Shown: piece by piece, positions 110 to 62,884 of the stretch
How the letters are laid out: the number at the start of each line of letters is the position of its first letter
Position numbering within the stretch: position 1 is the stretch's first letter
Assembly (NCBI RefSeq): GCF_028641065.1
Contig: NC_073388.1
Coordinates: forward strand, 15,128,001 to 15,192,000
Source: Leucoraja erinacea
Lineage: Eukaryota
Reading direction: 5' to 3'
Length of the DNA: 64,000 nucleotides
Notes under the pieces: model-generated
Databases searched by the model: none
What the model saw: the letters and a program-made list of their open reading frames with translations, nothing else
Told to the model about the DNA's origin: nothing
Made by a program: the position numbers and the translations under genes

Positions 110-410
110 AAGGATCTGCAGATGCTGGTTTACACTGAAGATCGATACAAAATGCTAGAGTAAGTCAGCGGAACAGGCAAGGATAGAAGGAATGGGTCAT
201 GTTTCGGGTCCAGACCCTTCTTCAGACTGCGAGTCAGGGGGAAGAGAGACAGAGTTAAGGAAAGGTAAAGTGTGAAAACGAGACATCAAAGGGGATGAGG
301 TTCAAGGAAATTGTAAAATAGATCATTATTAGCTAGGAGAAGGTGACAACAAAGAAAAATGAAGGGGACAGTCAGAGAAGTGGTTGGAGAACTAAGAAGG
401 GGGATGGATG
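110..410 (-). mobile_element. Penelope-like element 3' segment with degenerate minimal hammerhead motif
   Basis: Minus strand reads GTCTGAAGAAGGGTCTGGACCCGAAACATGACC (about 192-230), followed by the family tail ...CAGCATCTGCAG. A pyrimidine-rich upstream segment lies at 230-410. Confidence 0.75.
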
Positions 411-1579
411 GAGCTATTTTTCATGGCAGACCTACAGCGAAGAATTTTGGACAAAAGTGTGATGTTATTTTCTTTTTCAGATTATGATTGATCTGGGCGA
501 TAGGTCTTCCTTTCTCTGATCAATTTTACATTTCTGCTTATCATAAAATTAAATCTACTGACAAGCATGTTGCTAACATTATATTAATTGCATCCTAAGA
601 GCAGCCAACCTTGCTTAATGTGTTATATTGCAAAGGTTATATTCCCTTAATGCAGAATCCTCTTAGATTTAAACTTTAATGGAGCATGGTTTGTTTCTGG
701 GACGCAGGGTTTGGACAAGACTTTCAGCACTCATCGTCTTTTCTTTTTGCACAAGTCATCAGTTTTGGGGACTCGGAACACGAGGCTTGGTGGACTCCAG
801 ATGTAAGATGGGCCTTCAGCCAAGTAGCAATTGCTGACATAAAGAAGCCTTTGTAAAAGTCATCTGCGTGATTGACAATTTATTTTCACTTTGATAGTTT
901 GTAGCAATGTAGGTGGGCGCTGGGTAAAGCAAGCTTTGAGATCCTAGCTCGAGCCAAATTTGTGTTGGTGCTAGGAACAGATCACTCCAGTATCCCCCAA
1001 CCACATAGTGGACATTGTTACTGCTGATGCTGGCAGATCAATAGCACTTTTGTAACTGCATTAGGCTACAGTACATAGTGGATGGCAATCCATTTGGTTA
1101 ACAACAGATGTTTGACTAAATTATAATAAAGGCAGATCATAATCTATGATTTAAGATTAAAAAGGCTGTTTTTAGGAGATACTCACAAACTGTTAAAGTA
1201 CTGATGAGCATTAGAGGTGAGATATTGCTTCAGCTCTCACATAGGTCTTCTCTTTAATGTTTCCCATCTGCTGTTTGTCATCCTCTTCAATGCTCACATA
1301 AACTGCATGAGAATTTTTTAAACTAACAAATAGCATACCGCATTAAATTGTTAGTGTGTTTGTAACTTCTATCACAAGGAACCGGTGACTTGGAATTATC
1401 GTGAAATAATAAACGATTCTACTAACTAATCCCTATTTAATCAGAAAATTAATCATCTTTAAAATATTTCATATCCATATAAATAAAGTACTTTGCATTT
1501 CCTGTTTGGAATGTCATGGGAATGAACTACAAAGTGCGTAGAAAGAAAATAATTGGAAAGTGTTTTGAAAGCACTGAGC

Positions 1580-3540
1580 AAGAAAAGCTCCTGATCATTC
1601 CAATATCTCTCTTCAACTGAAATGCTTGAACTTGCAGGAACCAAGTCTCTCCTTTAAATTCTTTTGATCAACATTTGTCTCAAACCCAGCCATCTTTCCC
1701 TCTGTATATATTCACAACTCTACTGATAACCTGTACAAATGTCTTTTAATTGTTGACATTGTACCTACCTCAACCACTTCCTCTGGCAGCTCGTTCCGTA
1801 TACCCACCACCCTCTGTATGAAAATGTTGCTGCTCAGGTTCCCTCTAAATCTTTCCCTTCTCACCTTAAATTTATGCCCATTAGTTCTTGATTCCGCCTA
1901 ACCTGGAAAAAACTCTGTGCATTCATCCTATCTAATCCCCTTATGATTTTATACACCTCTATAAGATTGCCCTTCAGCCTCCCATGCTTCTAGGAAAAAA
2001 GTCCTACCCTGTCTTTCCCTTTATCTCAGGCCCTGATAACATCCTTGTAAATCTTGGCTCAGTGGCGCAGCGGTAGAATTGCAGCTTTGCACCGCCAGAG
2101 ACCCGGGTTCAATCCTGACTATGGGTGCTGTCTGTATGGAGTTTGGACGTTCTCCCTATGACCACATGGGTTATCTCTTGTTTCCACCACCATTCGAAAG
2201 TCATGCAGGTTGATAGGTTAATTGACTCTGTTAAATTGTCCCTGGTGTGTAGGATAGAACTAGTGTACGGGGGGTCACTTGTCAGTGTGGACCTGATGGA
2301 CCGAAGGGCCTGTTTCCAATGCTGTATCTCTAAAGTAAACTTATCTGCATCCCTTCCTATAGCAGGGTGACCAAAGCTGAACATAGTATTCCAAGTGCTA
2401 CTTCACCAACGTCTTGTATAACTGTAATATAACATTCCAACTACTACACATGTTCCTGACTGTTGAAGGCCAGCATGCCAAAAGCCTTCTTTATCAATCT
2501 AATGCCACTTTCAGGGAACTTCTGCTCCTATCTTCTAGATCCCTCTGCTCTGCAACACTCCCCAGGGATCCTACCATTCGTTGTGAAAACCCCATCATGG
2601 TTTGATCTCCAAAGTGTAACATCTCACACTTATCTAAATTAAACTCCAGTAGCCATTCCTTAGTTCACATGCCCAGCTGTTCAAGATCATGCTGTACTTT
2701 CTGATTTCTCATCCAAATCATTGAGGTAAATAATAAATACCAATGGGTCTGAGGCTAAAGTCTTCAGTCCAAAGCACATCCTTTCAACATCAACTCAGCT
2801 TCCTTCCATGAAGCCAATTCTGTCTCCAGACAGCTAGCTCTCCTTGCAGCCTACCATGCAGAACCTTATTAAACACCTTGCTGAAGTCCATATGGACCAT
2901 GTCTACAACCCTGACCTTGTTAAGCATCTTGGTTATTTCTTTAAAAAACACAATCATATTCATGAGACACGTTATCCAACACCATACTGATTATCCCCAA
3001 TCGACCCCAGTTGTTCCAAATGCATGCATAACTTATCCCTCAGAATCCTTTCCAGCAACTTTCCTACCACAGATGATAGGCTTACAGATTAATCGTTCCC
3101 AGGTTTTTCTTTGCATCATTTTTAACAGGAATATGAATACTTTGAACTCTCGCGTTCACACTTTTAAATGGATCCCATTTTCTGAAAGTCCCTTTGGCCA
3201 CAAACAACCTACTTCAATTAACCTTTGCAAGCTTCTGTCTAATACTGCAAAATTGGCCTTGCCCCAATTAAGAAGATTAACTTGTAGACCTGCTCTGTCT
3301 TTACCCATAACCATTTTAAAGCTAATAGAACTGTGATCGCTGGGTCCAAAAAGCTCAGCCACTGATACTTCAATCACTTGCCCTTCCCAATATCCAGAGA
3401 GCAAGTTGAGCTTTGCCCTATATCTTGTAGGGCCCTCTATATATTGCCAAATAATGATTTCTTAAACACACGTGACAAATTCCCCCTTGTCTAAGCTCTT
3501 AGTACTGTGACAGTCCCAATTGATATTGGGAAAGTTAAAA
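1580..3540 (-). mobile_element. Degenerate CR1/HER1-like LINE fragments, interrupted by an HE1 SINE
   Basis: ORF 3156-3404(-) SDHSSISFKMVMGKDRAGLQVNLLNWGKANF is the end of a CR1 APE domain. The CR1 3' region lies at 1700-2040. Confidence 0.75.
2056..2340 (+). mobile_element. HE1-type tRNA-derived V-SINE
   Basis: A box (TGGCGCAGCGG), B box (GGTTCAATCC), V-domain core (GGAGTTTGGACGTTCTCCC) and CR1-like tail GAAGGGCCTGTTTCC...TCTCTAAA. Confidence 0.9.
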
Positions 3541-3544
3541 ACCC

Positions 3545-4200
3545 AAAAGGACAAAGGACAAAGGACATTTATTGTCACATGCACCAATTGGTGCAGTAAA
3601 ATTTGAGTTACCGTGCAGCACACAAATAAGATACTCAGCACTATAGAATTTAACCAGAAAACATGAAAAACATCCCCTCCCCACAGCAGAATCAATGTTT
3701 CCCACTGTGAGGGAAGGCAACAAAGTTCAGTCCTCTTCCTCTTGTTCACCCGTGGTCGGAGCCTATAGAGGCCTCCGCAGTCGTTGCAACGGTGGTGCGA
3801 TGTTTCAGGCCCTCTCGCCGGGATGATGGAGCTCCGACGTCGGAACAGAGAACACTCTCAGCGGCCTGGAGTTCCGAAACGGCAGCTTCCATAGTCCACA
3901 GGCCGAGCTGGGCAGAGCTCCAACACTGGCGATCCACAGCGAAAGATCCCGCAGGTACGGGATACTGAGTTGGATGATCAGCCATGATCATATTGAATGG
4001 CGGTGCAGGCTCGAAGGGCCGAATGGCCTACTCCTGCACCTAATGTCTATGTTTCTATCCCAGGCCTCCGTGATGTTAAAGTCAGCACCACCCACAGCTG
4101 GAAGCTCCACAGACCACAGCTCCTCGGTGTTAAACAGCAGACCCAACGCTCCGGAGTTCCAACACGGCGATCCAGGTAAGGCATCGTCCCGCTCCGCGAT
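3545..4200 (-). mobile_element. GC-rich non-coding retroelement with Rex1-like 3' tail; a CR1 3' tail is nested at about 3952-4057 (+)
   Basis: Minus-strand end ...GTGACAATAAA(TGTCCTT)n and a CpG-rich body. The nested CR1 tail ends TCTATGTTTCT with ATCCC on both sides. Confidence 0.6.
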
Positions 4201-4929
4201 GATCATTCAGTGCTGAGAATGGAAGGCCATAAAGTGTAGGATGAGCAATATATAACAAGGAAAACTTACAATATGTAACACTGGGAAAGGAGATTACCCC
4301 CCAAGGAACTGATTTGTCCAGTTAGTTCATGTTTTAATTAAAAATAAGAATTGTCAAAAAGAAGAACAGAGATATGAACACAGCTATTCATCTCAATATT
4401 CTGCAAAATGAATAAGCATCCCCACCATCAGGATGCCTTTCAAGGACAAATGCCTCTGGCAGGATACAAATGAACAGTTTGCAAAGAACTATGATTCATT
4501 TCTCACTCTCCTTGCCCCAGTGCTGCAAACTATCCAATTTTCAGGGTGCTGTCATGACCCAAACTGGTCATGTTGGTCAGTTCACAAAAACGTTGCTGGC
4601 TATTATTTCCACGTCACACGTCACACGTCACAAAAGATAACATCAGGGAATGAGTAGATTAACGCAGAATTACATAGCTTCTTTTGCAGACTGCAATTAA
4701 ATGGTTGAGTTGGAGAATAATTGCAGAGTCTGTCCATATCTGCGTTCCAATTTTGGGTAGAAACTCAGAAATTAGAGCTTACTGTATAACAAGAGTCAAG
4801 AGTGTTTTATTGTCATATGTCCCAAACAAAACAATGAGATTTTGACTTGCAGCAGCACAACAGAATATTCTGTTCATATCACTCATTAGCATCTTCTAAT
4901 CACAACCAAAAGTGGGCCATTGTGTGCCC

Positions 4930-5135
4930 TACCTTTCTATGATCATTGATGCTGGCTTTGATTTGTCCTTTTGTTCTAATTTTATCGATGTTCCTTTTCA
5001 TATCTCTAGTATCCCTCTCCCCTGACTCTCAGTCTGAAGAAGGGTCTCGACCCGAAACATTATCTATTCCTTTTCTCTTGACCCGCTGAGTTACTCCAGT
5101 GCTGTAAATCAACATCTGCAGTTCCTTCCTGCACA
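4930..5135 (+). mobile_element. Penelope-derived hammerhead element
   Basis: CTGAAGA (5034-5040), A, GGGTCTCGACCC, GAAAC, followed by the family tail ...CATCTGCAGTTCCTTCC. Confidence 0.8.
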
Positions 5136-5219
5136 GGTAGAAATAGTACTCTGTAAACAATATAATATACGATCAAAGGTTCAGTAATATATATATTATA
5201 CCAATATGTATTTTACCGA

Positions 5220-6405: not shown

Positions 6406-6437
6406 TATATAATATGTGTGTATACACAAAGTTCAGT

Positions 6438-6438
<1 letters not shown>

Positions 6439-6520: not shown

Positions 6521-6526
<6 letters not shown>

Positions 6527-7616: not shown

Positions 7617-7619
7617 GAG

Positions 7620-9037: not shown

Positions 9038-9979
9038 CTAAATTGTTATTCTATTTGTTACATTGAAGTTGATCCAACATTCAAGCTCGTATATTTGAAA
9101 AACTGGTTCTACAATTGGAATATTTTCTCGGAGAAGTGTGACGAACTACATATAACATATGCATTGAGCATTGAACTCATTGCACTAAACATTATTCACC
9201 TTATTCCCTTTATCATGTATCTGTACATCATCGATGGCTCGATTGTAATCATGCATTGTCTTTCTGCTGACAATAAACTACTCGCACTCAAACTCAACTT
9301 AGAAAAGTACAGAACTGGAACAAACTCTTCAGCCCACATTGTCTATGTCAAACATAATGCCAAGATAAATTAATCCCACCTGCCTACACATTATCCAGTT
9401 CCTTCCATTCTCTGAATATCCAGGTGCCTATCTAATAATATCTTAAATCCCACTATTGTATCTTCCTCCATCAACACCATTGACAACTACTTCCAGGCAT
9501 CCAGCTAATGGGACCACAACAAAATCACACCATAGATAAAATATGTTTTGGTCCATCTCACTTTTGCCAGCTCTAAATCACTGGAATTGAAACCTGATCG
9601 TACTATCCATTTCTCAACCCATCACTCTGTATTTTCTTCCACCTCAAAAAATGTATTCTCTTCGATGAGATGCAATAGTCTCTCGCCCAATCATTCCCAG
9701 TAACACTGTTCTGACTGCCCAGGGAACCAATTTGGAATTTAAATAAATTACTGATTTTCTAATTCAAAGAAATCATCTTTCCCTAACCACCCTCTAAAAG
9801 GCTACAGAACTTAGAGCAAATAAATCCTTATTTTAAATCTTTGGTTTCCTTCTGTGCTCCATTAACCAATATCTCAAGTTACAAACATTTCCTCTACCTA
9901 ATATCAACCTGATGAATCTCTGCTGTACTCTCCCCTTGATATTAATGATCTTTTTTTAATAAATATTCTAAATTAGACA

Positions 9980-10049
9980 GAAGATAGACACAAAAAGCTG
10001 GAGTACGTCAGTGGGACAGTGGCAGCATCTCTGGAGCGAAGGAATGGGT
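9980..10049 (-). mobile_element. Short Penelope-derived insertion starting at the predicted hammerhead cleavage site
   Basis: TSD (T)AAATTAGACA at 9969-9979 and 10049-10059. The minus strand starts ACCCATTCC. Confidence 0.75.
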
Positions 10050-11049
10050 AAATTAGACACTTGCATTGAAGACTAACAAGTGTGCTTTATATCTGCCGGT
10101 ATCACTTCAAAAAAAAACTAAAATGTTATTAATCTTTTCTTTGAACCTTCCCTATCTGCAGTTACAGTTTTTGGTCAAAACATATTTGAACTCCTCGATT
10201 TGTTTTGTTGATCTATATTTGTTTAGTCCCAGAATGTATTCACGTTAAATTTGTGATAAATTTTAACATTCCAAGGATGGTTAGGGAGTTAAGTAAATTA
10301 ATAGATGTCATAGAGTCATAGAATCATACAGGATGGAAACAGGCCCTTCGGCCCAACTTGCACATGTTAGGGACCAACAAGCCCTATCAACACCAATCCC
10401 ACCTGCCTGCGTTTGACCCATAGCCTTCTAAATTTATCCTATCCTCAACCTTATGCCAACTTAAAATTCAGCTCCGGCTCCCACATAAAATGCCCTAGAA
10501 AGCCTGGTACATAGTTACAATATTTAAAGAAGCTCCATTCCTCGGCCCTTGGCTGTTAACTGGTCAGATTAAGGTTCTCAGGAGTCTGGAAATCCAGCTA
10601 AGTGGTCATCTAACACTAATGCAAGTTGGATCCAGATCCAAGAGACACAGTAATTGTAGATCATTTCTTACAGTCCAAAAGGAGCAGTAGTGTATCATCC
10701 CTCCAGTAAATCTACTACCAGCCCACAGCTAATGCCTCTACAATCTGTCAAAATATGTCCAACCAAATGAGAGCTCCACTTAACCCTCAACTTTAGCTTC
10801 CCCTTTTGTTTTGAGCTCCATATACTATTTAATGAAAAAATCCAGGATCCCATATGTGCTTTTGCAATGCTGTCAAATGGTTTCCTATTTTAAGAATTAT
10901 GTATCAAGCCTTGGCTCGTGTCTGACCTTTGGTTGCTTTTACCATTCATTATGCATTTTTTTATTTCCTTCAGGACATATTCTCTCTCACTTTTAATTTA
11001 CTACTGTCCACTTCTCAAATCTATTGATATGACAACGTGTTACAGTCAC

Positions 11050-11217
11050 CAAAGGACACAAAGTGCTGGAGTAACTGCAGTTCAGAATCCCTGGAAAACA
11101 TGGATAAGTGACGTTTCGGGTAGAGACCCATCTTCTCGACCCGAAACGTCACCTATCCATGTTCTCCAGGGATACTGCCTGACCCATTGAGTTACACCAG
11201 CACACTATGTCCTTTTG
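11050..11217. mobile_element. Fold-back Penelope-derived hammerhead element; its tail resumes at about 12389-12430 after the Rex1 insertion
   Basis: GTGACGTTTCGGGT...ACCCGAAACGTCAC inverted arms. Probable TSD TTACAGTCAC (11040-11049) / TTATAGTCAC (12432-12441). Confidence 0.75.
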
Positions 11218-12388: not shown

Positions 12389-13141
12389 TGTATTAACCAG
12401 CATCTGCATGCAGTTCTTTATTTATGCATCTTTATAGTCACTACGCTGTTTACAGTCACTACGCTGCCCACTACGAAGACTTCAACCAATTTGATACCGT
12501 GCCCTTTTGCACAAATCAAAATCATATATGTATGTAGTATATAGCTTATATTTATATTGTTTAAAGGAGTATTTTCAGCTCACACGAGGCCATAAGAGTT
12601 TACATCTGACTATGTTACTCATCCCCCAGTCATTACTTTCTTGGCCATGGAAGGATGTTAAATTGCATCATTATTGCATTTTTTTCCCTTATGGTGCAGC
12701 AGTCAGCAAAGCCACAGCTGTGGTCTATTATTTGCACTGCTCCAAATACGAGTCCCTTTAGTAGGACACAATGTTCAGATTATAGGGCATTCATATACAA
12801 TATCTGTGTAAGTAGGCAGTTTACTGCAAGGAACTATATAACTACTCCGAGGAAGATCGCCAAATTTCCTGGTGGGTATGGTAAATGTAGCTGAAACCAA
12901 TTACGATATTTAGTCTTTCCCGATAGAAAATGGGATAGGACTAATGAATCTGATCTGTTGATTTGTTATTGGCAACTACATTCCACTGAAGTTTGTCTTT
13001 TAGACGTAGGGATGAGTTCCATGTTTCCCCTAAAACTGATGACGGTTTGTTGCTTTGGTTTTCTTTCTGGGAGCAAACGAGGAAAAGGTTTGGATTAACA
13101 GGACAAGGAATTTGGTGCTGATAGTCTAGTTCTACATTAAG

Positions 13142-13227
13142 TCTGAAGAAACCTCAACATCACCAATTCCTTCTCTCCCGAGATGCTGCCTGTCCCGCTG
13201 AGTTACTCCAGCATTTTGTGCCTATCG
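13142..13227 (+). mobile_element. Penelope-derived mini element with stem II deleted
   Basis: Starts at TCTGAAGAA. TSD ACATTAAG at 13134-13141 and 13228-13235. Confidence 0.75.
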
Positions 13228-13944
13228 ACATTAAGGTTGTTTGTTTCTATAGTCCGAAGGGATTTTACTCACTCCGAACATTGATTCCTTATTGTACTTT
13301 ATTTTGTTTGACGTTGTTTGCAATATATCACCAGCAAAAGTAGAAATGGGAAACAGTGACACATAAATTTTCCGAAGCATCACTGATAACAGCTTTCTTA
13401 TGACAAAGCTTTATTTTGTGAGAAAGTCCTTGGTCCAACATAGTTTTAGAAAGGTCAGCCAAGTTTAACGGGGACAAGGAAGGAAGCAATCTTAACTGAT
13501 TAAAAATAACTTCAGGAGGAATCACTCCTTGACCTAATAAATCCATGTCATTACTTTTCCTGAGAATGAACATGCAGAACAATGGTAGTCATTAGGTGTG
13601 TCACCCTAAAGATGGCAAATGCATATCATTTTGTTCCTCAGCAATTCCACTCCCAATATTAATTCATGTTGACCTATAAATGTCCATTGTCAGTTACTTC
13701 ATTTATTCACAATAGAAATTCTATCACCGGTAAATTGATTGTTCACAATTCATATCTGCCAGGGCTTTATTTGTTCTTAATAGGTTGAGCTCGTTCTTGT
13801 CATTGATTTACTTAGCTCTCTACATTTTCAAACAATGCTTTGCATTTACATCATGTGGTTTATTATCAAGGAAGATATTGAACTCTTTATATCAGGAAAT
13901 AGTTTTTACAATGGATGACCTTTCCATTTCTTCACTTCCAATAA

Positions 13945-15570: not shown

Positions 15571-15965
15571 GCTGGATAGAGGTTTTTAAAATGATGAGAG
15601 GGATAGACAGAGTTGGCGTGGAAAAGCTTTTCCCACTGAGAGTAGGGAAGATTCAAACAAGGGGACATGACATGAGAATTAAGGGACTGAAGTTTAGGGG
15701 TAACATGAGGGGGAACTTCTTTACTCAGAGAGTGGTAGTTGTGTGGAATGAGCTTCCAGTGAAGGTGGTGGAGGCAGGTTCGTTTTTATCATTTAAAAAT
15801 AAATTGGATAGTTATATGGATGGGAAGGGAATGGAGGGTTATGGTCTGAGCAGCAGGTATATGGGACTATGGGAGATTATGTGTTCGGCACGGACTAGAA
15901 GGGTCGAGATGGCCTGTTTCCGTGCTGTAATTGTTATATGGTTATATGGTTATATGGTTATATGG
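15571..15965 (+). mobile_element. CR1 LINE 3' end with (TTATATGG)n tail
   Basis: MRGIDRV...TRGH...NFFTQRVVVVWNELP, ending in an 8-bp tandem tail. Confidence 0.9.
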
Positions 15966-16229
15966 GTCTCGAACCAAAACTTCAGCCATCCCTTTGCTGC
16001 CAGAGATCCTACCTGACCTGTTGAGAGTTTTTCCACCAGTTTGGTTTTTTTTTTTTGTTCCAGATTACAATATCTGCTTCCCTTGTGTCTTGATTTTTGT
16101 TATTGCTGAAGTTGGGGAATTACAGCACTTGCCGTCTCTTGGGGCTTGTTTGTTATTGCTGAAATTCACTTTTTCTGTTTTCGGGAATTTTAGGCAGAAT
16201 AAGGCCATTTGTCATAAATTCATGTTCAT

Positions 16230-20950: not shown

Positions 20951-21350
20951 GGGTGGCACAGTGGTGCAGCGGTAGAGTTGCTGCCTTTCAATGCCAGAAA
21001 CCCATGTTCGATCCTGACTACGGTTGCTGTCTGTACGGACTTTGTACGTTCTATCCATGACCCCGTGGGGTTTCATTGGGTGCTTCAGTTCCCTGCCACA
21101 CTCCAAAGACAAGTTTGTAGGCTGAAGAAGGGTTTCGGCCCGAAACGTCGCCTATTTCCTTCGCTCCATAGATGCTGCTGCACCCACTGAGTTTCTCCAG
21201 CAATTTTGTGTACCTTCGATCTTCCAGCATCTGCAGTTCCTTCTTGAACAAGTTTGTAGGCTAATTGGCTTCTGTAAATTGTCTCTAGCTGGATGATTGA
21301 TGGTCGGCGCCAACTCGGTTGGCTGAAGGGCCTGTCTCTGCATTTTATCT
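20951..21350 (+). mobile_element. HE1/V-SINE with a nested hammerhead element
   Basis: A box, B box GTTCGATCC, core and tail; interrupted at about 21121-21250. Confidence 0.85.
21122..21154 (+). ncRNA. Minimal (Penelope-type) hammerhead ribozyme motif
   Basis: CUGAAGA 21122-28, extra A, stem II GGGU-UUCG-GCCC, GAAA 21142-45, palindromic ACGU, GUC site with cleavage predicted after 21149. Stem I is imperfect. TSD ACAAGTTTGTAGGCT at 21109-23 and 21248-62. Confidence 0.7.
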
Positions 21351-21749
21351 TGAGTCTAATGTGTCCCGACCTGAAACATCACATGTCCATGTTCTCCAGA
21401 GATACTATCTGATGCTTTGAGTTACTCCAGCTCTTTGTGTCTGTTCTTGGTGCTGAATGGCTCTGGTAGAATTGAGACTGGGCAATCACAAGCTGACGAC
21501 TGGTATGCAAATACTGCTGCACATCATGGGACCTCTGACTGTGTCAAGCGACTAGCTACTAGTCTATTGTCAAATAAGCTACCAGAATAATGTCAGATGC
21601 TCAGTATTGGTACAAACACTAAGATGCCAGCGGGGAGGACTTTGCAGGTTCCTCTGAGATGGTGCGCTACTAAAAGGCCCCCAGAACCTAGATAAATATA
21701 AAGTAGTTTGCCTTAATTAGCCTTGATTTTTATTGCAGTTTAATATAAC

Positions 21750-23310: not shown

Positions 23311-23529
23311 ATAGACTGAGACTGACTGCCCTCTGCTCCCCCCCTCCCCCTTTGATCGTGTGGGTGGGGAGGGTGGGCGGAACTGGAAGCAGGAAAAAAT
23401 AGGACAAATCAGGGTTAACAACATATTACCTCAGGCAAGGAGGTTCCTGGCCATTTCCCTCTATTGATGCTGCTTGAACCACTGAATTCCTCCAGCAATT
23501 TGTGTTTTATTCAAGATTCCAGCATCTGA

Positions 23530-24790
23530 AGCAGGTGCGGAAGAGGTTTACCAGAATGGAATAATACCCTGGATCAGAGGGTATTAGCTAGAAGATGAGT
23601 TTGGGCAAACATAGGGGCCTGTCCCACGGGCATGTGACCTGCATGCGGCAAGTGTGACCTAAAGGGCCGGTCCCACTTCGATCACCTGAGTTTTACGGAG
23701 CTGGTCCCGACATCGCGCGGGGCTCCAAAACACTGTTTAAAAATTCCGCGCGGCAATGGCCTGCCGGCCCACAGCCGCCTCGATGCCGTGTCACTCACTC
23801 GACCTCCACGTGGCTCAAGCTTCTGGTTTGGTATCGCTTGCCGTATGCCGTACGGCTCAAGCGACCATGTTAGGTCGCGCTTGCCGCATGCAGGCTCATG
23901 CTGGTGGGACCGGCCCTTTAGGTTGCGCTTGCCGCATGCAGGTCGCATGCCCGTGGGACAGGCCATTCAGATTGTTTTCTCCAGAATGTCGGCAGTTGAG
24001 GGGAGATCTGATAGAAGTATTGTCTCAGGGTGGAACCTTTTTCTCAAGGTGCAAATGTTAAAGAATAGACAACTTTGCTTTAAGGTGAGAGGGGCAAAGT
24101 TTAAAAGAGATTTGTGGGGTACCGTTTTTACACAGAGAGTGGTGAGTGCATGGACTGCACTGCCACAGTTGGCCATGGAGGCAGATATGACAGTAGTATT
24201 TAAGAGGCTTTTAGATAGGCATATGGATATGCTAGTAATGGAAGACATGGATTGTGTGTAGGAGATTAGGAGATAAAGATTAAGCCTAGGAGATTAGTTT
24301 AATTTGGCATTGTGTTATAAACTGAGAGAATGGAACGGCTGGGCCTGTATACTTTGGATTTTAGAAGGATGAGAGGTGATCTTATTTATACATATATTAA
24401 GGGTTTGGACACGCTAGAGGCAGGAAACATGTTCCCGATGTTGGGGGAGTCCAGAACCAGGGGCTACAGTTTAAGAATAAGTGGCAAGCCATTTAGAACA
24501 GAGACAAGGAAACATATTTTCACACAGAGAGTTGTGAGTCTGTGGAATTCTCTGCCTCAGAGGGCGGTGGAGGCAGGTTCTCGGGATACTTTAAAGAGAG
24601 AGCTAGATAGGGCTCTTAAAGATAGCGGAGTCAGGGGATATGGGGAGAAGGCGGAACGGGGTACTGATTGGGGATGATCAGCCATGATCACATTGAATGG
24701 CAGTGCTGGCTCAAAGGGCCGAATGGCCTACTCCTGTACCAATTGTCTATTGTATTCGCCGTGGACTATGCGGGCCAAAGGTGTTATGTT
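23530..24790 (+). mobile_element. Two nested CR1 3' fragments (younger copy about 24325-24752)
   Basis: FRRMRGDL, TRGYSLRI, FTQRVVSLWNSLPQRAVEA, with a TGTCTATTG tail. Confidence 0.85.
23614..23966. mobile_element. PIF/Harbinger-type MITE with reiterated terminal unit
   Basis: About 60-bp TIR GGCCTGTCCCACGGGCATG...CCTAAAGGGCCGGTCCCAC and its reverse complement; inserted in a CR1 fragment. Confidence 0.8.
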
Positions 24791-28103: not shown

Positions 28104-28121
28104 TAATTATGATTAGGAACC

Positions 28122-28350
28122 TAAGATAGACACAAAGTGCTGGAGTAACTCAGCGGGGTCAGGCAGCTGCTTTGTTCTGGGCTTTTCTTACCTCTAGTTC
28201 CCTTTCCTCTCCTTTCAGTCTGAAGAAGGGTCCCAATCTGAAATATCAACCATCGGTTTTCTCCGGACGTGCTGCCTCACCCGCTGAGTTACTCCAGCAC
28301 TTTATGTCCATCTTCAGTGTAAACCAGCATCTGTAGTTCTTTTCTACACA
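28122..28350. mobile_element. Penelope-derived element with inverted 5' arm and degenerate hammerhead
   Basis: CAGTCTGAAGAAGGGTCCCAATCTGAAATATC at about 28216-28248, with inverted GCTGGAGTAACTCAGCGGG arms. Confidence 0.7.
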
Positions 28351-31726: not shown

Positions 31727-32335
31727 CTGGGATGTAACAATAGCATCCCCTTGTGATTTAGAAAGGACCTTCATATTCTTGCAATGTATTTATCCCCAAA
31801 GACAGAAGTTAAAAATTAAACGTAGTTCTCACTTTATTACTTAAGTTTGATAACAAGGAACTGCAGATGCTCACTAACACAAAAAAGGACACAAAGTGCT
31901 GGAGTAACTTAGCAGGCCAGGCTGCATTTCCCGAGAAAATGGATCTCCAGAGATGCTGCCTGACCTGCTGAGTTACTCCAGCATTTTATGTCCTCTTGTA
32001 CTTTTTTAAAAACTTTTAAGTTATAATTCTGGGATGTAACAATAGCATCCCCTTGTGATTTAGAAAGGACCTTCAATGAATATTTTTGAAATGTATTTCT
32101 CCCCAAAGACAGAATAAGTTAACAAGTAATAAAGTGAGAACTAAGTTTAATTTTTAAGTTTGAAAACAAGGAACTGCAGATGCTCGTTCACACGAAAAAG
32201 GACACAAAGTGCTGGAGTAATTCAGCAGGCCAGGCAGCATTTCCCGAGAACATGGATCTCAAGAAATGCTGCCTGAACTGCTGAGTTACTCCAGCATTTT
32301 GTGTCTTTCTGTGCTTTTTTAAACTTTTAAGTTAT
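31727..32335. repeat. Tandem duplication (period about 300 bp), each unit holding a fold-back Penelope fragment
   Basis: CTGGGATGTAACAATAGCATCCCCTTGTGATTTAGAAAGGACCTTCA at 31727 and again at about 32029. Confidence 0.9.
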
Positions 32336-32409: not shown

Positions 32410-32510
32410 CTGACTGAAGAAGGATCTCGACCCGAAACGTCACCTATTACTTTTCTCCACAGATGCTGCTTGACCCACTGTGTTACCCTGGATTTTTGTG
32501 TCTATCTTGC
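32410..32510 (+). mobile_element. Penelope-derived hammerhead element
   Basis: CTGAAGA 32414-20, AGGATCTCGACCC, GAAACGTC, ACCTAT. Confidence 0.8.
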
Positions 32511-33147
32511 TGTCTTCGATACTGGCCATCCCCGTGTTATGAATGCTCAACTTTTTGACACACCTACATATGAATACGTTCCCACAATATTAAATTAAAA
32601 AATCCGACATGCATACAAATATTTGTTCCCACGACCAGCACAACTAGTTTCCTCTCTTTCTCTGCACTTTCGGCAATAGTTCTTCCTATAACGATCTTCT
32701 GTATTTTTGATGCTATTCGTTATAATGACGTGGATGTACGATTGCCATATTGAGTGGTTTTGTGTATTTTCTGACTTACAGACAAAATCAACTGATGGAG
32801 ATTTGCGGAAACAGAACCCGTTCATTACGCAAGGATGTGCTGTACCATAAAAAATAATGAACATGCAACACCACTTCAGTAAATCATCTCAGTTAACAAA
32901 AGCTGAACAACTCCTTTGCATTTGAGCTTAATTAACTTGTCTTTCCTGGGGTTTCTACATCAGCAACGTCTTCATTGCACCATAGACTTCCTTCCCAGCA
33001 ACATTAAACTTACTGCTAGAAAGAAATTAAAAGCTTTTCAAAGTAACAGGCATGAGTTATTCATCAGTAAGGGAGGCAAGTTATCAAAATGATTATTTGC
33101 TGTCAGAGGAAACAATATTTAAAGTGGCTTCGAAACACAGTGGCTTA

Positions 33148-39325: not shown

Positions 39326-39455
39326 TGTGTAGGAAAGAACTGCAGATGCTGGTTTAAATCGAAGGTAGACTCAAAATGCTGGAGTAACTCAGCGGGACAG
39401 GCAGCATCTCTGGAGAGAAGGAATGAGTGACGTTTCGGGTCGAGACCCTTCTTCG
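39326..39455 (-). mobile_element. Penelope-derived hammerhead element
   Basis: Minus strand GAAGAAGGGTCTCGACCCGAAACGTCACTC plus the full tail; the core reads CCGAAGA rather than CTGAAGA. Confidence 0.8.
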
Positions 39456-39500
39456 GTACTTTATTGTCATGTGACACAAAAGGAAACAATGAACTTCTTA

Positions 39501-45103: not shown

Positions 45104-45233
45104 TGGTCTGAAGAAGTGTCTCGACCCGAAGCATCACCAATCCATGTTCTCCAGACATGCTGCCTGACCTTCTGAGTTACTCCAGCATGTTGTCAATTAT
45201 AATATAAACAAGCATCTGCTGTTCCTTGTGTCT
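45104..45233 (+). mobile_element. 130-bp Penelope-derived hammerhead element
   Basis: TSD CCATTAACATT (45093-103, 45234-44). TTGGT-CTGAAGA...GAAGCATC-ACCAA gives a 5-bp stem I, but the core is mutated. Confidence 0.85.
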
Positions 45234-45649: not shown

Positions 45650-47880
45650 TATGACACCAGGACAAACATGAGTCCCAGTATGATCACTCGGACATCCGTC
45701 GACTGTGGCAAGGCCTGAATACTATAACTGGCTGCAAAGTAAATTCAAGCTACATCACTGGTAATAGCGTGGCACTCCCTGGTGAACTTGATGCATTTTA
45801 GGCTCACTTTGATCACAAGGCCAGCAGGGTGATGACACCGGTCCCATCATACTCGAGTGCACCTTTTCCTAGAAGCTGTTGCAGAGTTAGATTGGCCTTC
45901 CTGAGGGTGAAGCCACGGAAAGCAACTGGTCCAGATGGAGTCCCTGGTCGCATCCATAGGAACTGTGGGACCGACTAGTGGAAGTGTTCACAGACATAAG
46001 TAATCTCTCCAAACTCCATTCTGAGATACCCAGCTGCTTCAAGAACACCTTAGCCTTGGTGTCAAAGAAAAGCAAGATCTCATGCCTTAATGACTACCAT
46101 CTAGTAGCCTTGATGTCCACCATCATGAAGTGCTTTGAGAGGCTGGTTATGGCACACATTAAATCAAGCCTACTAAGGAACGTTGATCAACTGCAGTTCA
46201 CCTACTGCCACAACAGGTCCATAGCTGATATCATCTCCCTTTTCCTGCACTCATCACTGGAACACTTGGATAACAAGGACACCTACATCAGACAACTATT
46301 CATAGACATGTAGGAAAGAACTGCAGATGCTGGTTTTCACCGTAGATAGACACAAAATGCTGGAGTAGCTCAGCAGGTCAGGCAGCATCTCTGGAGAAAA
46401 GAAATAAGGGTTTCAACCCGAAACATCACCGATTCCTTTTCACCAGAGATGCTACCTCACCTGCTGTGTTACAGTACTTCAGCATTTTGTGCCTTGTCCT
46501 ATTCGTAGACTACTGCTCTGCTTTCAATACCATCATCACAACCAAGACCATCTTCAAACTGGTGGAACTTGGAGTCAGCACTCCTCTCTGCAACTGTATC
46601 CTCGACTTCCTGCCCAACAGACCAAAATCAGTGAGGATAGGTCACAAATCATCCTCTACGATAATCCTCGCCACTGGTTCCCCACAAGGATATATTCTCA
46701 ACCCCCTGTTATATTTCGTAAACATTCATGATTGTGCAACCAAATACCAATCCAACTCAATTTACAGGTTTGTAGACGACATTACAGTGGCGGGCCAGAT
46801 ATCAAATAATGATAAGTTAAGTACAGGAAGGAGATTAAGAACATCGTAAGACACCAAACAAGTCCTTAAAGTTGCAAGACAAATGTGGTTGTGATTGACT
46901 TCAGGATGTACAGTAAAACAGTACACACACGCTGGTATACATTGATTGTGCTGAAGTTGAAAGCTTCAAGTTCTTAGGAATAAATATCCCCAGCAATTTG
47001 GCCTGGACCAGCCACCTCAAAGCTATGGCCAAGAAAGGAACACCTACTTCCTGAGAAGGCTTAGGAAATATGGTCATCACCAATAACCCCCTCCAACTTC
47101 TAAAGCCAATAGAACGGAGACGAGGAAACACTTCTTCACACAGAGAGTTGTGAGTCTGTGGAATTCCCTGCCTCAGAGGGCGGTGGAGGCTGGCCCTCTG
47201 GATACTTTCAAGAGCAAGCTAGATACAGCTCTTAAAGATAGCGGGGTCAGGGGATATGGGGGAGAAGGCAGGAACAGGGTACTGATTAGGGATAATCAGC
47301 CATGATCACATTGAATGGCGGTGCTGGCTCGAAGGGCCGAATGGCCTACTCCTGCACCTATTGTCTATTGACTTTTGTCTATAAAGCATTTTATCAGAAT
47401 GCACCACATCATGGTTTGGGAACAGCTCCATCCAAGACCACATTAAATTACAGAGAATTGTCAACGTAGCTCAGACCATCACTCGAACCAACCTCCCTTT
47501 CATTGACTCCAACCCCACTTCACACTGCTTCTGCAAGGCCACCAACATAAGCAAAGACCAGTCTCACCACAGGTACTCCCTTTTCTCCCTTCTTCCACCA
47601 CAAAAAAGGTACAGAAGTTTAAAAACGCATACTTCCAGATTCAGGGACAGTTTCTTCCCAGTTGTTGTCAGGCAACTGGATTGTCCTTTCACCAGCTGGA
47701 GTTGGTCTTGAATCAGACTTTATTGGACTGTATCTTGCACTAAATGTTGCACCCTTTATCCTGTATCTGTACACTGTGGATGGCTTGATTGTAATCATGT
47801 ACAGTCTTTTCTTTGACTAGATAGCATGCAGCAAAAGCTTTTCACTGTACCTCAGTACATGCAACAATAATAATTCAACT
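45650..47880 (+). mobile_element. Decayed Rex1/Babar-type LINE with nested insertions
   Basis: [45 protein letters not shown]; 3' UTR at 47700-47880; nested CR1 at about 47100-47372. Confidence 0.88.
46308..46498. mobile_element. Fold-back Penelope-derived element inside the Rex1 RT
   Basis: TSD CTATTCATAGAC (46296-307) / CTATTCGTAGAC (46499-510); inverted arms meet at GGGTTTCAACCCGAAAC. Confidence 0.85.
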
Positions 47881-49429: not shown

Positions 49430-50430
49430 AGCGCAAATATGCAGCACCTGGACTTATACCTCCTCCCTCGCCACCATCCAGGGACCCCAGCATTCCTTCC
49501 TGGTTCATGTGCACCTCCTCTAACCTCATCTTCTGTATCCGATGTTCCCGTTGTGGCCTCCTGTATATCAGCAAGGTGTACGCTCTTTAGACTTTTACTT
49601 TAGACCTTAGAGGGATAGCATGGAAACAGGCCCATTTGGCCCACTGAGTCTGCAACGGCCTACAATCACTCCGTACACTAACAGCACCCTACACACTAGG
49701 GACAGTTTACTATTTTATTGAATCTAATTAACCTATAATCCTTTACGTCCTTGGAGACTTTAGAATGTGTGTGGAAACGGGAGTACCCGGAAAAGGCCCA
49801 CACGGTCACAGGGAGAATGTACAAACTCTGTACAGATAGTACCCATAGTCAGGATCAATCCTGGGTCTCTGGCGCTGTAAGGCAGCAGCTCTACCACTAT
49901 GCCATTTTGTGGTACTCAGAGCAACAGTGACCAGTTTCGCCAAACACTTGGGTTCGGTCCACCAAGGCCTACTGGATCTCCCAGTTGTTAACCATTTTAA
50001 CGCCTCTTCCAATTCCCACACTGACCTATCTGTCCCGTACCTCCTCCATTGCCAGACTGAGGCCACATGCAAATACCGCTTGGTAGCTTACAATCCAACA
50101 GTATGAATATTGAATTCTCCCATTTTAGGTAACCTCTAACAACCTCCCTCCCCATCCCCTATCTCCCCCACATCCCCACTTTGTTTCCCCAATCCCTCCC
50201 CTGTGCTAAACCTAGATCCACATTCATTTCTGCTCTCCGCTCCCCCTTCACCTACATTCCTTCCTCTGGCTTCACAATTCACAACTCTTCAATCCTTTTG
50301 TCTCACACATTTTTTTTTACCTTTGGCCTTTGTACAACCATCTCCCTATTTAAACAAAAACCCTGCCTGTGTTCACCTATTACCTGCCACTTGTGGTCCT
50401 GACCCTCCTCTCTTCTAGATTTCTTCCCTT
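49430..50430 (+). pseudogene. Penelope-like (Neptune-type) GIY-YIG endonuclease remnant plus 3' UTR, split by an HE1 SINE
   Basis: YTSSLATIQGP / FMCTSSNLIFCIRCSRCGLLYISK, [SINE], FAKHLGSVHQGLLDLPVVNHFN..SNSHTDLSV / MNIEFSHFR* (stop 50130-32), then a pyrimidine-rich UTR. Confidence 0.85.
49587..49905 (-). mobile_element. HE1/V-SINE
   Basis: Full reverse-complement head, core and tail. Confidence 0.88.
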
Positions 50431-50806: not shown

Positions 50807-52641
50807 CCACGTCACATGTGCCAGGGTCTTCAGTGATGCACTGAGAAAGGCCTATGCTTGAAGTCCCCATGACAGCTGTAGCAGCTGGCAAAGCACTGTT
50901 AGCCCACTGTCGAATCTCTGAAGAGTTTTAAATGCTGTTCAATGCCCCTGACATTCACTCAACATTATAAAAACATGATTTCAAATAAGCAAATGTTTGA
51001 AATATCTTCTATAATTTTATTCATCATTCAAATGCTGGTTTTATCAAGCAAACTCCATTTATAAAGGAAGATCACATATTGGCAGTACAGAAGCACTGCT
51101 AAAGGAAATATGACCCTCAATGCGACCGTTTCCCTTTCAAGTTCTACCTTATTTATGTAAATTATTCATAGTTATGAATTTACATGGTTACCATGGTGAT
51201 GACAGTTCTCTGTAACCCTCTCTCCTAAACCTAATCAATCCTTATCGACAGTAGAGTTGCAAACATGAATCTGGACATTCAGTATCTGTATCTGCTTTAA
51301 TCCACAGAGGCTTGAAAAGGATTTGCTGCAGAGATGTAGTGTAGTGAAGTCTTGCTTGGGCGTACGGACAGCTCAGTGAGTTAAAGCATTGCCCTGTCAC
51401 AGTTCCAAAAATGTAGAATAGGAATAGGAATACTTTATTGTCACATGTGACTAGGCACAGTGAGATTCTTTGCCTTGCATTCGCAATGTATACAAATAGC
51501 AGACAAAGTTACAAAGCATGCTGGTTCCCCCTCTTGTCCCCCACTCCCCTTCCCCCCTCAACAGTTCCCCCACACTGAATCCCCATTGTCCTTTGTCCCC
51601 TCCCCCCTCTTGTCCATTTCTCTCCCCCCCCCATGCCAGGTCCTCCATTGCTCTTCCTCCTACATAAGAGATGAATCTCTCATTTCACTCTGTTGGTAGC
51701 AAGAACCTAATGTGAAATGTGTCTGTGATGGTCTCAATCCAATTCCTAACTGATAAAGAAAAACATAAGGATGATTGACTTGGCACTCAGCTGTGAGTCA
51801 GCAAAGCTGAAAACACATGAAATGCCCTTTGAAACGTCTTTCCCATTTAAAGATTTTTTTCAGCGCTATGTTCCCATTCCCACGATTCTGAAATTATACC
51901 CAGGTCTTTTTTCGCAGAGTTTCAAATGTGGAATTCTTTATATCCCTACTGGTCTAGTCATGCATTAATTAGTTAGAAATTAAAAAAAAAAATCAAGTCC
52001 ATTCAATCTTTGGGTTATGTTGTACAATGTCTTTCCAAGCTGGCTTCCGAGAAAAAAGATTTTCACATCACAAGCAATCTAGACATGTAATGGCAAAAAA
52101 AAGACACAAAGTGCTGGAGTAACTCAGCGGGTCAGGCAGCATCCCCGGAACGCATGAGTAGATGAAATTTTGGGTGGGGACCCTTTTTATTTGGGATTGG
52201 TATTGGTTTATTATTATCATATGTACCAAGATACAATGAAAAATCTTTTCTCTGCATCGATTTAAATCAATGGCGTGCTATCCATTTAAATCATCCACAC
52301 ATGATTCTAATCAAACCATATATGAACGCAGCAGGTAGTGAAATAAGAGATAACAAATAAATAACAACATAGAATATAGTTTAATTTAACATAGTTTAGA
52401 GATACAGTGTGGAAACAGGCCCACCGAGCCCACACTGACAAGCGATCACCATTAAACTAATTCTACCCTACACTCCGGGGACAATTTATAGAAGTCAGTT
52501 AACCTAAACTGCATATCTTTGGAATGTGGGAAGGAACTAAAGTACCTGGAGAAACCCACACGGTCATAAGGAGAACGTGCAAACTCCGTACAGACAGCAC
52601 CCACAGTCATGATCAAAGTAAGACAGCAACTCTATCTCTGC

Positions 52642-53086: not shown

Positions 53087-53228
53087 NNNNNNNNNNNNNN
53101 NNNNNNNNNNNNNNNNNNNNNNNNNNNNNNNNNNNNNNNNNNNNNNNNNNNNNNNNNNNNNNNNNNNNNNNNNNNNNNNNNNNNNNNNNNNNNNNNNNNN
53201 NNNNNNNNNNNNNNNNNNNNNNNNNNNN
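53087..53228. other. Assembly gap (142 N)
   Basis: Run of N seen directly. Confidence 1.
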
Positions 53229-53922
53229 TTATTTTGGCCCTTCTTTTCTTTCTTTAAAGCTGTGGAAATATACAAGTCACACGGACACTGATGTTCGCCA
53301 AATTGTAGCTGCCTTCCCTGCATGTATTGAAGAAGAAATATTTCCTTTCACACTTCCTCATTCATGGCAGGCCAGTTAATATGCTGTACAATATTACAAA
53401 TCCCATCTCGGAAACAGGTTTCACTCTCTTTAACACCTCAAAATATTAACAGTTTGAAGAAAGGTCCTTGAGTCTATAGTGGAAGGTACATCTTCCAACC
53501 TTTAGAAAAGCAAAAGTCAGCCAGGTGACAACGATGTCAAAAGGACAGGTCATGCTCGATTAACCATGTGGAATTTGATTGGGGAAATAAAAAGCAGTTG
53601 GTTTGGTATTTTAAATATAAAACATTTAGTGATATATACTTCAAATCAAAGATACTAGAGGAGCCAAATTGCACCACTTCCAAAAATAATGGCATATGGG
53701 GATCCTGGAAAATATAACCATGCAGTTGGAGGCAAGAAAACAATATATTTCTTGGAGTGAATAGACGTGGTAAATTGATAAGGGACTATTGTCTTATGAA
53801 TGTTTTGTGTAAAACCCTACTTTGCTTTAGTGAATTGATCAACAATGACCAGAAACTCTGAACATGCATACTGTGTGCACAATGAGTGTATATACTCCAG
53901 ATCAATGCCTTAAGTTGGAGTA

Positions 53923-54094
53923 AGACACAAACTGCTGGAGTAACTCAGCAGGACAGGCAGCATCTCTAGAAGGAAGGAATGGGTGACGTCTCGAAACGTC
54001 ACCCATCCCTTCTATCCAGAGATGCTGCCTGTCCCGCTGAGTTCCTCCAGTATGTTGTGCCTAGCTTTGGTGTAAACCAGTTCCTTCAAACACA
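53923..54094. mobile_element. Fold-back Penelope-derived element
   Basis: TSD TTAAGTTGGAGTA (53910-22, 54095-107); arms centred on GGGTGACGTCTCGAAACGTCACCC. Confidence 0.88.
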
Positions 54095-55061
54095 TTAAGT
54101 TGGAGTAGCCCTGGTTCCAGAGCAGATAATGTAAAAGCTATGACAGATATGTGTCGATGCATTGTCCTATGATTGAATGGAATGTTTATGCAAGCTCTGT
54201 GACAGAGATCTTTCAGAAAAAAATGTAATTTGCTATTAGAGTCAGTCATGGAGTCATACAACACTGAAACAGGCCCTTCGACCCACCATGTCCATGCTGA
54301 CCATTGTACTTATCTATATTGATCCCATTTATCTGCATTTGGCCCATAGCTCTCTCTGCCCTACTGATTCACATGACTGTCAAGACATTTCTGAACTATT
54401 GTGATGCGCCTGCATCCTCAGGCAATGCTTTGCAGATTCCAAACCATACTCTGTCTGAATTTTGATTCCCCTCCCCCCCTCCCTGTGCAATCAGTCTGGA
54501 GAAGGGCCCTGACCTGAAATGTCACGTATGCTCACCATGTTCTCCAGAGATGCTGCCCGACCTTTAGTTACTCCAACACATGATGTCCTTTGTGTAAAAT
54601 GGCAACTGCAGTTCCTTGTTTCTAAATTTTTTTATAGTTTTTGAACCAGTCCCCTGAATCACATTCAGTTTTCTGTTACTGTAGACCAAGCTAATGATCT
54701 TTGATTGATCAATATGCGAGGTTGTGTCATCAGAAGATCTGTCTGCCTTGGGGTGGGGTCAAGATTTATGAATATTGCTGCAAAATTTGTTCCTGATGTT
54801 GCATCATCATCTTTGGCTAGAACGGAGGCATCAAAGCAAATTGCTGATGCGTTTTAATCTCATAAGCAGGTGCAAGGTTAATCAACAGTTTCCTATTTGC
54901 ACTTTTCAAGTCAGTTCTTTCTTCTTTCTTGTAGATCTGCACTTTCAGTCGACTCCCCGCCGACAGCTGCAGAGCATGGTTGCTGACATTTGCATCATTT
55001 TTCCAAGTAACTAGTGAGTAATAGGTGTACACCAAGCATCAACAGCATTACCATTTTATGT

Positions 55062-58738: not shown

Positions 58739-58802
58739 AGGGTGGAAGGTGGAAAAGAATAAATGACAAAAGGGGTGAACGTGCAGGGTAAAAGGGAATG
58801 GA

Positions 58803-59505: not shown

Positions 59506-59557
<52 letters not shown>
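58803..59557 (+). mobile_element. 5'-truncated non-LTR retrotransposon, RTE-X-like C-terminus, with (ATT)n tail
   Basis: KIKYL..IITEQMTDDEDI..QRRMLYVQANILLRKFGAC..VKMSLFRAYCTPLY..LW is open to the stop at 59326; AATAAA and about 16 ATT units follow. Clade assignment is from memory. Confidence 0.7.
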
Positions 59558-59558
<1 letters not shown>

Positions 59559-61750: not shown

Positions 61751-62223
61751 AAAACTCTTTATTTAAGATCTTGCATTAAGAAATATGTAAAGTTACCCGA
61801 CGGCTATCACTCATGAGAGAGGGAGACAAAGCTGAAAAAGTAAAGACATTACCTTTCCCTGTCAGCCCTCTGATGAGAACTAACCTTCCATTCAAGGTAA
61901 TGAAACTATGGAAACCTGTTGAACATTATTTGAGCATTATTGATAATAGAGCTTCTATTTCACCATGGTTTTAGATTAAAATTCTTTGAAAAAGCTTTGT
62001 GTAGAGAATCAAATGAATTGCAAGTTAGATTCACCAGCTCCCCTCGCTCCTCACCACCTCCTCCCCCTAACAAAAAACCTCCGCATCCAATAATTAAACA
62101 AGTCATGTGTGCCATTCTTATGGGTCAGTGACGCTATTCGACTCATTTTATTGTCTCTTATCTATTTGACCCAATTAATAATTAAAGTAGATTTTCAAAT
62201 ACAAAGTAAAAGGAAATGATAGT

Positions 62224-62302
62224 ATGTGTGTATGTGTGTGTGCTTGTGTGTGCGTGTGTGTGTGCGTGTGTGTCTATTTGTCTGTGTCTGTGTCTGTGTG
62301 CA
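62224..62302. repeat. Imperfect (TG)n microsatellite
   Basis: Seen directly. Confidence 0.9.
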
Positions 62303-62664
62303 TGTAAATTGGTCCATTTGTTTTAATGTGTTGAGGGTGTTTGGAGATGTGGCAGATGGGTGTTTCATAAAGGCAGGATTTAGAACTATTTCATGTAAAT
62401 TGCAACCCAGAAGCAAGGCATTAAAACCAACCACCATGTTGGCATTTATCATTTGCATGAACAGTAGATCTAATCCTATGTGTCTAATCCTATTCCATTA
62501 TTCATTTACTCATGCTTCCTTTAAATATCTATCTAAACTATAATTAATTCTTAAACTAGCTCTGATTCAACCACTAAGGCATGTTGTACATTCCAAAGCC
62601 CTACAATCCCATGAGCACTGATGTCTTCCTTGCTCTCTATTCCCACTTCTATCCTCTGGTTGTA

Positions 62665-62884
62665 CTGTAGATAGACACAGAAACCTGGAGTAATTCAGCG
62701 GGACAGGCAGCTTTTCTGGAGAGAAGGAATGAGTGACGTTTCGGGTCAAGACCCTTCTTCAGATGTCACAACCCGAAACGTCACCCATTCCTTCTCTCCA
62801 GCGATACTGCCTATCCCGCTGTTACTCCAGTTTTTGTGTCTATCTTCAGTTTAAACCAGCTTCTGCAGTTCCTTCTTACACATT
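62665..62884. mobile_element. Fold-back Penelope-derived element with an intact hammerhead core on the minus strand
   Basis: TSD TCCTCTGGTTGTA (62652-64, 62885-97). Minus strand CTGAAGAAGGGTCTTGACCCGAAACGTC at 62735-62762. Confidence 0.88.

Follow-up and report, generated by a model that had tools for sequence, protein, structure and literature searches.

A hammerhead-bearing terminal repeat of a Penelope-like retrotransposon and its abundant short copies in the skate Leucoraja erinacea

Minimal hammerhead ribozymes in the terminal repeats of Penelope-like elements (PLEs), including motifs dispersed singly through genomes, have been known since 2014. As described by Cervera and De la Pena (2014, PMC4209133), the hammerheads of these pseudo-long terminal repeats (pLTRs) combine CUGANGA and GAAA boxes with an extra base between A9 and G10.1, a G10.1-C11.1 pair, and a palindromic 15.2-16.2; most are single dispersed motifs ascribed to truncated PLEs, and some form opposite-strand pairs. 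The same study reports that minimal hammerheads cut poorly, as dimers, and the one in the green anole cuts only with protein (PMC11167929). Here, we analyze motifs that share all of the listed structural and distributional features in a stretch of 64,000 nucleotides (the window) from the skate Leucoraja erinacea (assembly GCF_028641065.1, contig NC_073388.1, positions 15,128,001 to 15,192,000), where they lie in a short repeat derived from a PLE. As a ribozyme finding, this family is ordinary.

Three other described systems are close to the skate element. Neptune PLEs with an endonuclease (EN+), as presented by Craig et al. (2021, PMC8557442), have the same reverse transcriptase (RT), CX2-5CxxC linker, and C-terminal GIY-YIG domain, and they likewise display heavy 5' truncation, partial tandems, an inverted 5' copy, and a tail of 30-40 bp that is often one-ended; a sharp 5' boundary at the hammerhead and composites joining the body to that boundary, both seen in the skate element, are not among the features that we saw described there. 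PAc, which comes from the green anole and belongs to the Poseidon clade (Frangieh et al. 2024, PMC11167929), resembles the skate element in having two internal reverse transcription starts 30-40 nt apart that define a tail. Both target strands are extended in PAc, uncut RNA is used, the cut is unneeded, and no reads end at it, a pattern that the skate copies fit. However, the open reading frame of PAc starts in stem II, whereas in the skate element an ATG lies ~38 nt past the tail (by eye), and run-off at a fixed 5' point was not reported for PAc. Finally, the non-LTR retrozymes of animals share a type I hammerhead, an origin in PLE pLTRs, and dispersed monomers, but they are defined by tandem hammerhead units and by self-cleaved linear and circular RNAs (PMC7229834; bioRxiv 10.64898/2026.07.22.740005); in the skate, tandems are rare and copy ends lie off the cut.

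The repeat unit and its parent element

A profile built from seven window copies (threshold E<1e-3) identified 27 matches to a repeat unit of ~135 nt in the window and none in five reversed or shuffled controls. Seven of these matches belong to head-to-head pairs, as the arm in inverted orientation, which leaves 20 insertions and agrees with the ~20 copies counted in a preliminary description of the window made from the sequence alone. That description also called the family dense, yet 0.42 matches/kb in the window compared with 0.51/kb genome-wide (Poisson p=0.2) is an ordinary density. The genome-wide figure, like the counts of sampled matches and insertions given below, derives from 120 stretches of 10 kb (1.2 Mb) sampled at round coordinates across large contigs; they contain 607 matches occupying 4.7% of bases (~5% of the genome), and the whole-genome extrapolation is ~1.1 million matches.

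The unit is almost certainly the terminal repeat (a pLTR with an optional tail of ~35 nt) of a very abundant Neptune-type PLE that bears the known minimal hammerhead. Upstream extension of several of the 30 best genome matches led through a pyrimidine-rich untranslated region (UTR) into a GIY-YIG coding region, and four further upstream walks extended the body to ~3.5 kb, with a CX4CXXC linker (CNRRKCYTC in locus L006, CNRRRCNTC in locus L096) and RT motifs. The GIY-YIG match in the element gene is weak (E 0.017), and sequence scans of the RT piece against Pfam, NCBIfam, and PDB gave no match. Relatives, the closest and best-matching of which come from skates and rays, carry PF00078 (RT), PF01541 (GIY-YIG), and PF26215. 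All gene copies seen are broken, and they are 12-18% apart. The Penelope origin suggested earlier is upheld by these longer copies, which run into the RT/GIY-YIG gene.

In the element as pieced together from several copies, the unit makes up the final 135 nt of insertions and also the 135 nt that lead into the gene, and it directly precedes the gene-bearing body in 43 of the 55 loci that contain the body start. Its presence at both ends of the element identifies it as a pLTR. As in EN+ PLEs, RT is followed by GIY-YIG in one gene, pLTRs stand at both ends, and an optional tail and inverted copies occur. The putative assignment to Neptune rests on the CX2-5CxxC linker between RT and EN, a feature that Neptune has in common with Nematis.

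A coding role for the unit was considered and rejected, the open frame of one subfamily not being kept in another (by eye). Pieces of the element gene (P0001, P0003, and P0004) are annotated as host-gene isoforms in several rays and skates, and these annotations are likely to be artefacts or cases of exonisation. Separately, five long copies on small contigs (L254, L259, L283, L287, and L296) have 433-450 nt of upstream UTR in common; they are probably one partial tandem that was duplicated several times, which makes them a candidate for the structure of a source locus.

The hammerhead motif

The motif, whose palindrome is ACGU, consists of CUGAAGA with one additional A, a stem II of 4 bp, and GAAACGUC. 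The catalytic boxes, the extra base after A9, and a palindromic helix III are all present, and the initial reading of the motif as a minimal type I hammerhead with a predicted cut at GUC/ACC matches the published PLE type. The extra A before stem II had been entered as a caveat; it is a published hallmark of PLE minimal hammerheads (PMC4209133) and, therefore, supports the identification rather than weakening it. The suspicion of a weak stem I was well founded. In 37 long copies, pairs 1-2 form (0.92, 0.86), pairs 3-4 fail (0.14, 0.08), and pairs 5-6 form partly (0.81, 0.62), and helix I amounts to 2 bp; two extra A-U pairs could form only in copies that include the UTR. The published motif of Drosophila virilis likewise has a helix I of 2 bp, whereas a length of 4-5 bp is not reached here; the Schistosoma motifs have 4-5 bp in helix I and 7-8 bp in helix II, compared with 2 and 4 bp in the skate (PMC4209133). 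An Rfam scan of the window returned no hammerhead match at E<=1.

Five natural copies are predicted to fold into an alternative hairpin, the pairing probability of stem II in these copies being <=0.22, and hammerhead self-cleavage is predicted to be low. In short copies, the hammerhead would be a passenger, and in the parent RNA it would at best cut weakly, as a dimer or with protein. Among the 430 sampled matches that reach the core, 38 keep the core, stem II, and palindrome, equivalent to ~69,000 intact motifs by extrapolation to the genome; 4,000-9,000 are given for coelacanth and Xenopus, by a different method (PMC4209133).

Column conservation at the non-CpG sites of the core is 0.91-0.96, and the same core occurs in all six sequence clusters of the family although their UTRs differ, which indicates that the masters retained it. 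A promoter role could add to this conservation, and ACGT resembles the downstream element of Penelope (PMC2377424). In the window, all ten cores of the preliminary description are present and their positions confirmed, with the C of CTGA at 225(-), 5034, 13143, 21122, 28220, 32414, 39456(-), 45108, 54496, and 62762(-). Only three (21122, 32414, and 62762) have an intact catalytic core, and stem II is fully paired in two of these three; core 13143 lacks stem II.

Copy ends, composites, and the origin of the short copies

The 456 sampled insertions that include a 3' end consist of 175 short copies, 71 long copies reaching 48-1296 nt upstream of the unit, 108 insertions with an inverted arm, and 102 that stop deeper. 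The 3' ends of 348 single copies fall mainly into two groups, with 158 at 88-110 and 151 at positions of at least 124 (~100 and ~133 nt). At the other end, 76% of short copies begin at -6 to +12 relative to CTGA (mode -2/-3). The stop rate is 5.2%/nt at this boundary, compared with ~0.5% upstream and 0.7% downstream, the latter value being inflated by copy decay, so the boundary stands out ~7- to 10-fold. A simulation with uniform boundaries places most of the 5'-end mass upstream, unlike the observed spike, and in a control on long copies the UTR was recovered and 94% were scored as long. Hence the nonrandom 5' ends reported initially are confirmed as a spike at the front of the hammerhead, and the random ends of ordinary truncation, named in advance as grounds for abandoning the proposal, were not what was found.

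The pile-up of 5' ends lies ~30 nt upstream of the predicted cut, which is 28 nt downstream of C3. There is no excess of 5' ends at the cut itself (9 of 456 within 2 nt, versus 12.7 expected from neighbouring positions), which argues that uncut RNA served as the template, as it does for PAc. Target-site duplications (TSDs) with a score of at least 10 flank 28 of 172 short copies, compared with 0 in the null; for inverted pairs, the count is 34 of 104, compared with 1 in the null. TSDs in the sample are 10-18 bp long. The inverted pairs carry one tail in 82 of 108 cases and both tails in only 4, where 18.8 would be expected (p=5e-9); their single TSD and one tail fit the priming of two nicked strands at two sites. 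Head-to-tail pairs number 7 in 607 matches, and no tandem array with hammerheads occurs in the 1.2 Mb, although rare arrays elsewhere are possible. At one locus (L040, 6585-6850), a 66-nt segment of the unit, which begins within the hammerhead and includes no complete ribozyme, is present four times in tandem.

We propose that the short copies are probably dead-on-arrival cDNAs, made by the enzyme of the element from uncut RNA and terminated where it ran off the RNA 5' end at TCAGTC. By analogy with PAc, the element RNA would stay uncut, and reverse transcription would be target-primed at one of two internal sites. Both nicked target strands would be primed, one at each start site, giving inverted pairs with one tail, and the enzyme would run off the RNA 5' end, predicted at TCAGTC just before the hammerhead, to leave a common 5' edge. 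Occasional jumps from the run-off point to another RNA end would create composites and might perhaps regenerate pLTRs. We somewhat favor the view that the run-off point is the start of the RNA, with transcription beginning before the hammerhead, and TCAGTC presumably fits an initiator (Inr) sequence. A literature search that did not extend to most subscription journals or to Repbase and Dfam found no paper on run-off or strong-stop PLE copies or on this family in skates.

Loci selected for containing the start of the element body add to this picture. Where the repeat reaches the hammerhead (23 loci), 10 begin at -4 to +5, 3 at approximately -11 to -25, and 9 with upstream UTR, while 1 is unclear. 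Composite loci number 25 (L248, L260, L266, L267, L273, L277, L278, L284, L305, and 16 more of L246-L305), and in each, a pLTR and tail are followed by 150 to 450 nt of body (longer in one) and then by a second unit. The body breakpoints all differ, which led us to reject a nonautonomous deletion family of 400-600 bp; nine composites join the body straight to the 5' boundary of the unit (AGTCTG), three through A-runs. A credible TSD surrounds the whole composite in 5 of 23 tested, an apparent TSD at L257 having been discounted as tail sequence. Composites are rare, the 1.2-Mb sample having 4 body-start matches, and they suggest that the enzyme, on reaching the end of one template, jumped to another at its 3' end.

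Several observations weigh against run-off at the RNA start. The letters TCAGTC also read as a 3' splice site, and the 5' ends are spread over ~18 nt, with 38% of them inside the core. Of the nine UTR-bearing body-start loci, five may go back to a single insertion that was duplicated, composites rather than full-length copies account for many body-start loci, and the comparison of short with long copies has low power (135 nt, 6-21% decay). A cap-derived G before AGTCTG appeared in 9 of 44 versus 1 of 46 cases at first and then in 2 of 12 non-C cases, and the signal was not replicated. In D. virilis, the transcription start does not lie at the hammerhead but upstream, separated from it by 46 nt and an intron (PMC2377424, PMC4209133). 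Also, polyA reads of a related species (one raw polyA-selected run, ~6% of reads examined) show no pile-up of starts or ends over the unit and cover both strands equally, although this type of library shows such features poorly. In the same reads, the gene body has a 2-3-fold strand bias (L116:2370-3070, L269:1504-1740) and the unit has none, in a library whose strandedness is not established.

The same parent element could also have produced the pile-up at a roadblock or splice boundary in read-through tandem RNA, where the enzyme would stall on entering a C/U-rich, 3' splice-site-like tract that ends in CAG and is possibly bound by protein. The UTRs of all subfamilies are pyrimidine-rich and end in (T)CAG, being otherwise unlike one another, and in D. 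virilis it is at helix I that the intron ends (PMC4209133); the spread of 5' ends beyond a single base and the failure of the cap-G signal to replicate also accord with a stall. However, the short copies have no common upstream exon (composition is flat at -7 to -14), 4 of 175 are joined to other upstream parts at points that differ from copy to copy, and the stop comes only after the structured region has been copied. Splicing onto the CAG in particular was rejected, with no recurrent donor and no GT-AG joint among the RNA joints listed, and we consider this explanation as a whole unlikely. Improbable, in our view, is a retrovirus-like strong-stop model in which PLEs would build their pLTRs from unit-length RNA: copying would start internally, close to the RNA 5' end, run off at the start site, and jump to an RNA 3' end. 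Only the 3' repeat would hold a whole hammerhead, and cleavage in that repeat would leave the 30-nt terminal redundancy used in the jump. The short copies, about a million in number, would then be failed jumps, and the composites would be misdirected ones.

Other explanations detach the short copies from such a mechanism. The preliminary description proposed that an approximately 130-bp unit moves alone as a retrozyme- or SINE-like (short interspersed element) family; such a family would be nonautonomous, with solo copies as the source of its transcripts and with mobilisation supplied in trans. Short copies do outnumber long ones by ~5 to 1, with TSDs and a common 5' edge; solo copies would carry an internal promoter, and nonautonomous PLE derivatives and PLE-derived retrozymes exist, also in one chondrichthyan (PMC8557442; bioRxiv 10.64898/2026.07.22.740005). 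Several observations nevertheless speak against the proposal: ends lie away from the cut, tandems are rare, the unit also precedes the gene, and long members occur in every one of the six clusters (2/16, 11/67, 17/60, 2/35, 32/118, and 6/14). No alignment column separates short from long copies in three clusters, at the low power already noted, tail use is alike (71 of 175 short and 31 of 71 long copies), stem II pairs poorly in the five folded copies, and, by analogy with PAc, the enzyme would need ~55 nt past the start sites that solo copies lack. The retrozyme form is largely refuted, the sample holding only the 7 head-to-tail pairs and no array with hammerheads; DNA ends show no excess at the cut. 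The polyA reads show no pile-up, but small circles would be invisible in them. As for a SINE, the whole unit is PLE sequence, there is no short-only cluster, and Rfam gave no tRNA, 5S, or 7SL match. A separate family is, overall, quite improbable. Random 5' truncation of the ordinary kind, acting on full-length copies, is very improbable. In its favor, 141 of 456 insertions end deeper in the unit and another 71 end at scattered points as far as 1.3 kb upstream, as for a steady stop rate of 0.5-0.7%/nt, but the boundary spike refutes it as the sole cause unless short UTR remnants were badly missed.

Copies and other repeats in the window

Clear TSDs of 8-15 bp, the lengths originally reported, surround 7 of the 20 window insertions (9966, 13140, 21119, 45105, and the pairs at 46310, 53907, and 62637) rather than many of them. 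The copies at 13140, 21119, 45105, and 39457 do start within a few nucleotides of CTGA, as claimed for them, but those at 225(-), 5034, and 28220 continue 37-186 nt upstream into the 3' UTR of the parent. The first of these PLE end copies (103..414, minus strand) comprises the unit at 103-228, with C3 at 225 and a mutated palindrome, a tail, and ~186 nt of UTR, and the second (4870..5133, plus strand) comprises a unit at 5031-5133 with internal deletions, a tail, and ~161 nt of UTR. The third belongs to a head-to-head insertion (28117..28348) whose sense arm (28217-28348) has ~37 nt of UTR and a tail and whose inverted arm (28117-28173) is tailless. An older-subfamily copy at 54493..54619 (+) has a mutated core and a pyrimidine-rich UTR remnant upstream.

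A short copy of a young subfamily at 21119..21248 (+) has an intact minimal hammerhead, a tail, and a 15-bp TSD; C3 is at 21122, its stem II is GGGU-UUCG-GCCC, it includes GAAACGUC, and the predicted cut falls after 21149. Other short copies lie at 13140..13231 (+; begins at AGTCTG, has lost stem II by deletion, is tailless, and has an 8-bp TSD), 32412..32533 (+; catalytic core intact, one stem II mismatch), 39328..39457 (-; tail, U4 changed to C, imperfect 9-bp TSD), and 45105..45229 (+; begins at GGTCTG, core mutated, 11-bp TSD). The copy at 9966..10050 (-) begins approximately at the cut site and has the short 3' end and a 10-bp TSD. Decayed copies without a tail are found at 15964..16042 (+), 21361..21442 (+), and 52100..52188 (-, a short copy), a decayed 5'-truncated copy without a hammerhead is found at 23455..23537 (+), and decayed fragments of the PLE gene and 3' region, split by another repeat, occupy 49432..50341 (+; 69-73% identity to long copies by blastn).

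Head-to-head pairs occur at 11054..11212 (junction inside stem II), 46310..46493 (one tail, 12-bp TSD with 1 mismatch), 53907..54083 (joined at the GAAACGTC region, 13-bp TSD read by eye), and 62637..62880, where the minus arm has an intact minimal hammerhead (C3 62762) and there are one tail and a 13-bp TSD (by eye). The pair at 31852..31993 lacks a hammerhead and has a near-duplicate at 32167..32311, 313 nt apart; these near-identical fold-backs represent a local duplication, and both give weak Rfam matches to a microRNA precursor (mir-1420, under the gathering score).

The window also contains unrelated features. Stop-free stretches of 365 and 310 codons at 35110-36200 (+) and ~14540-15473 (-) have what we take to be the motifs of a Rex1/Babar-like non-LTR reverse transcriptase. 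GC-rich arrays of ~36-38 nt units, related to each other (family D4), lie at 34038-34356 and 61427-61697, with 27 kb between them. Many further dispersed repeats (families D1, D3, D5, D8, D9, and D16-D20) presumably resemble SINEs and the 3' ends of CR1/L2-type long interspersed elements, and 53087-53228 is a run of 142 N.

The copying of PLEs, which is poorly understood, has left a fossil record in the skate copies: two sites of initiation, a fixed stop point, inverted pairs with a single tail, and junctions that suggest jumps. The two hammerheads of a composite lie 300-600 nt apart, and pipelines that search for tandem repeats could score them as retrozyme dimers. If the RNA begins at the stop point, that point locates the promoter of a Neptune element in a vertebrate, and both the origin of the pseudo-LTR and the purpose of the hammerhead would become testable.

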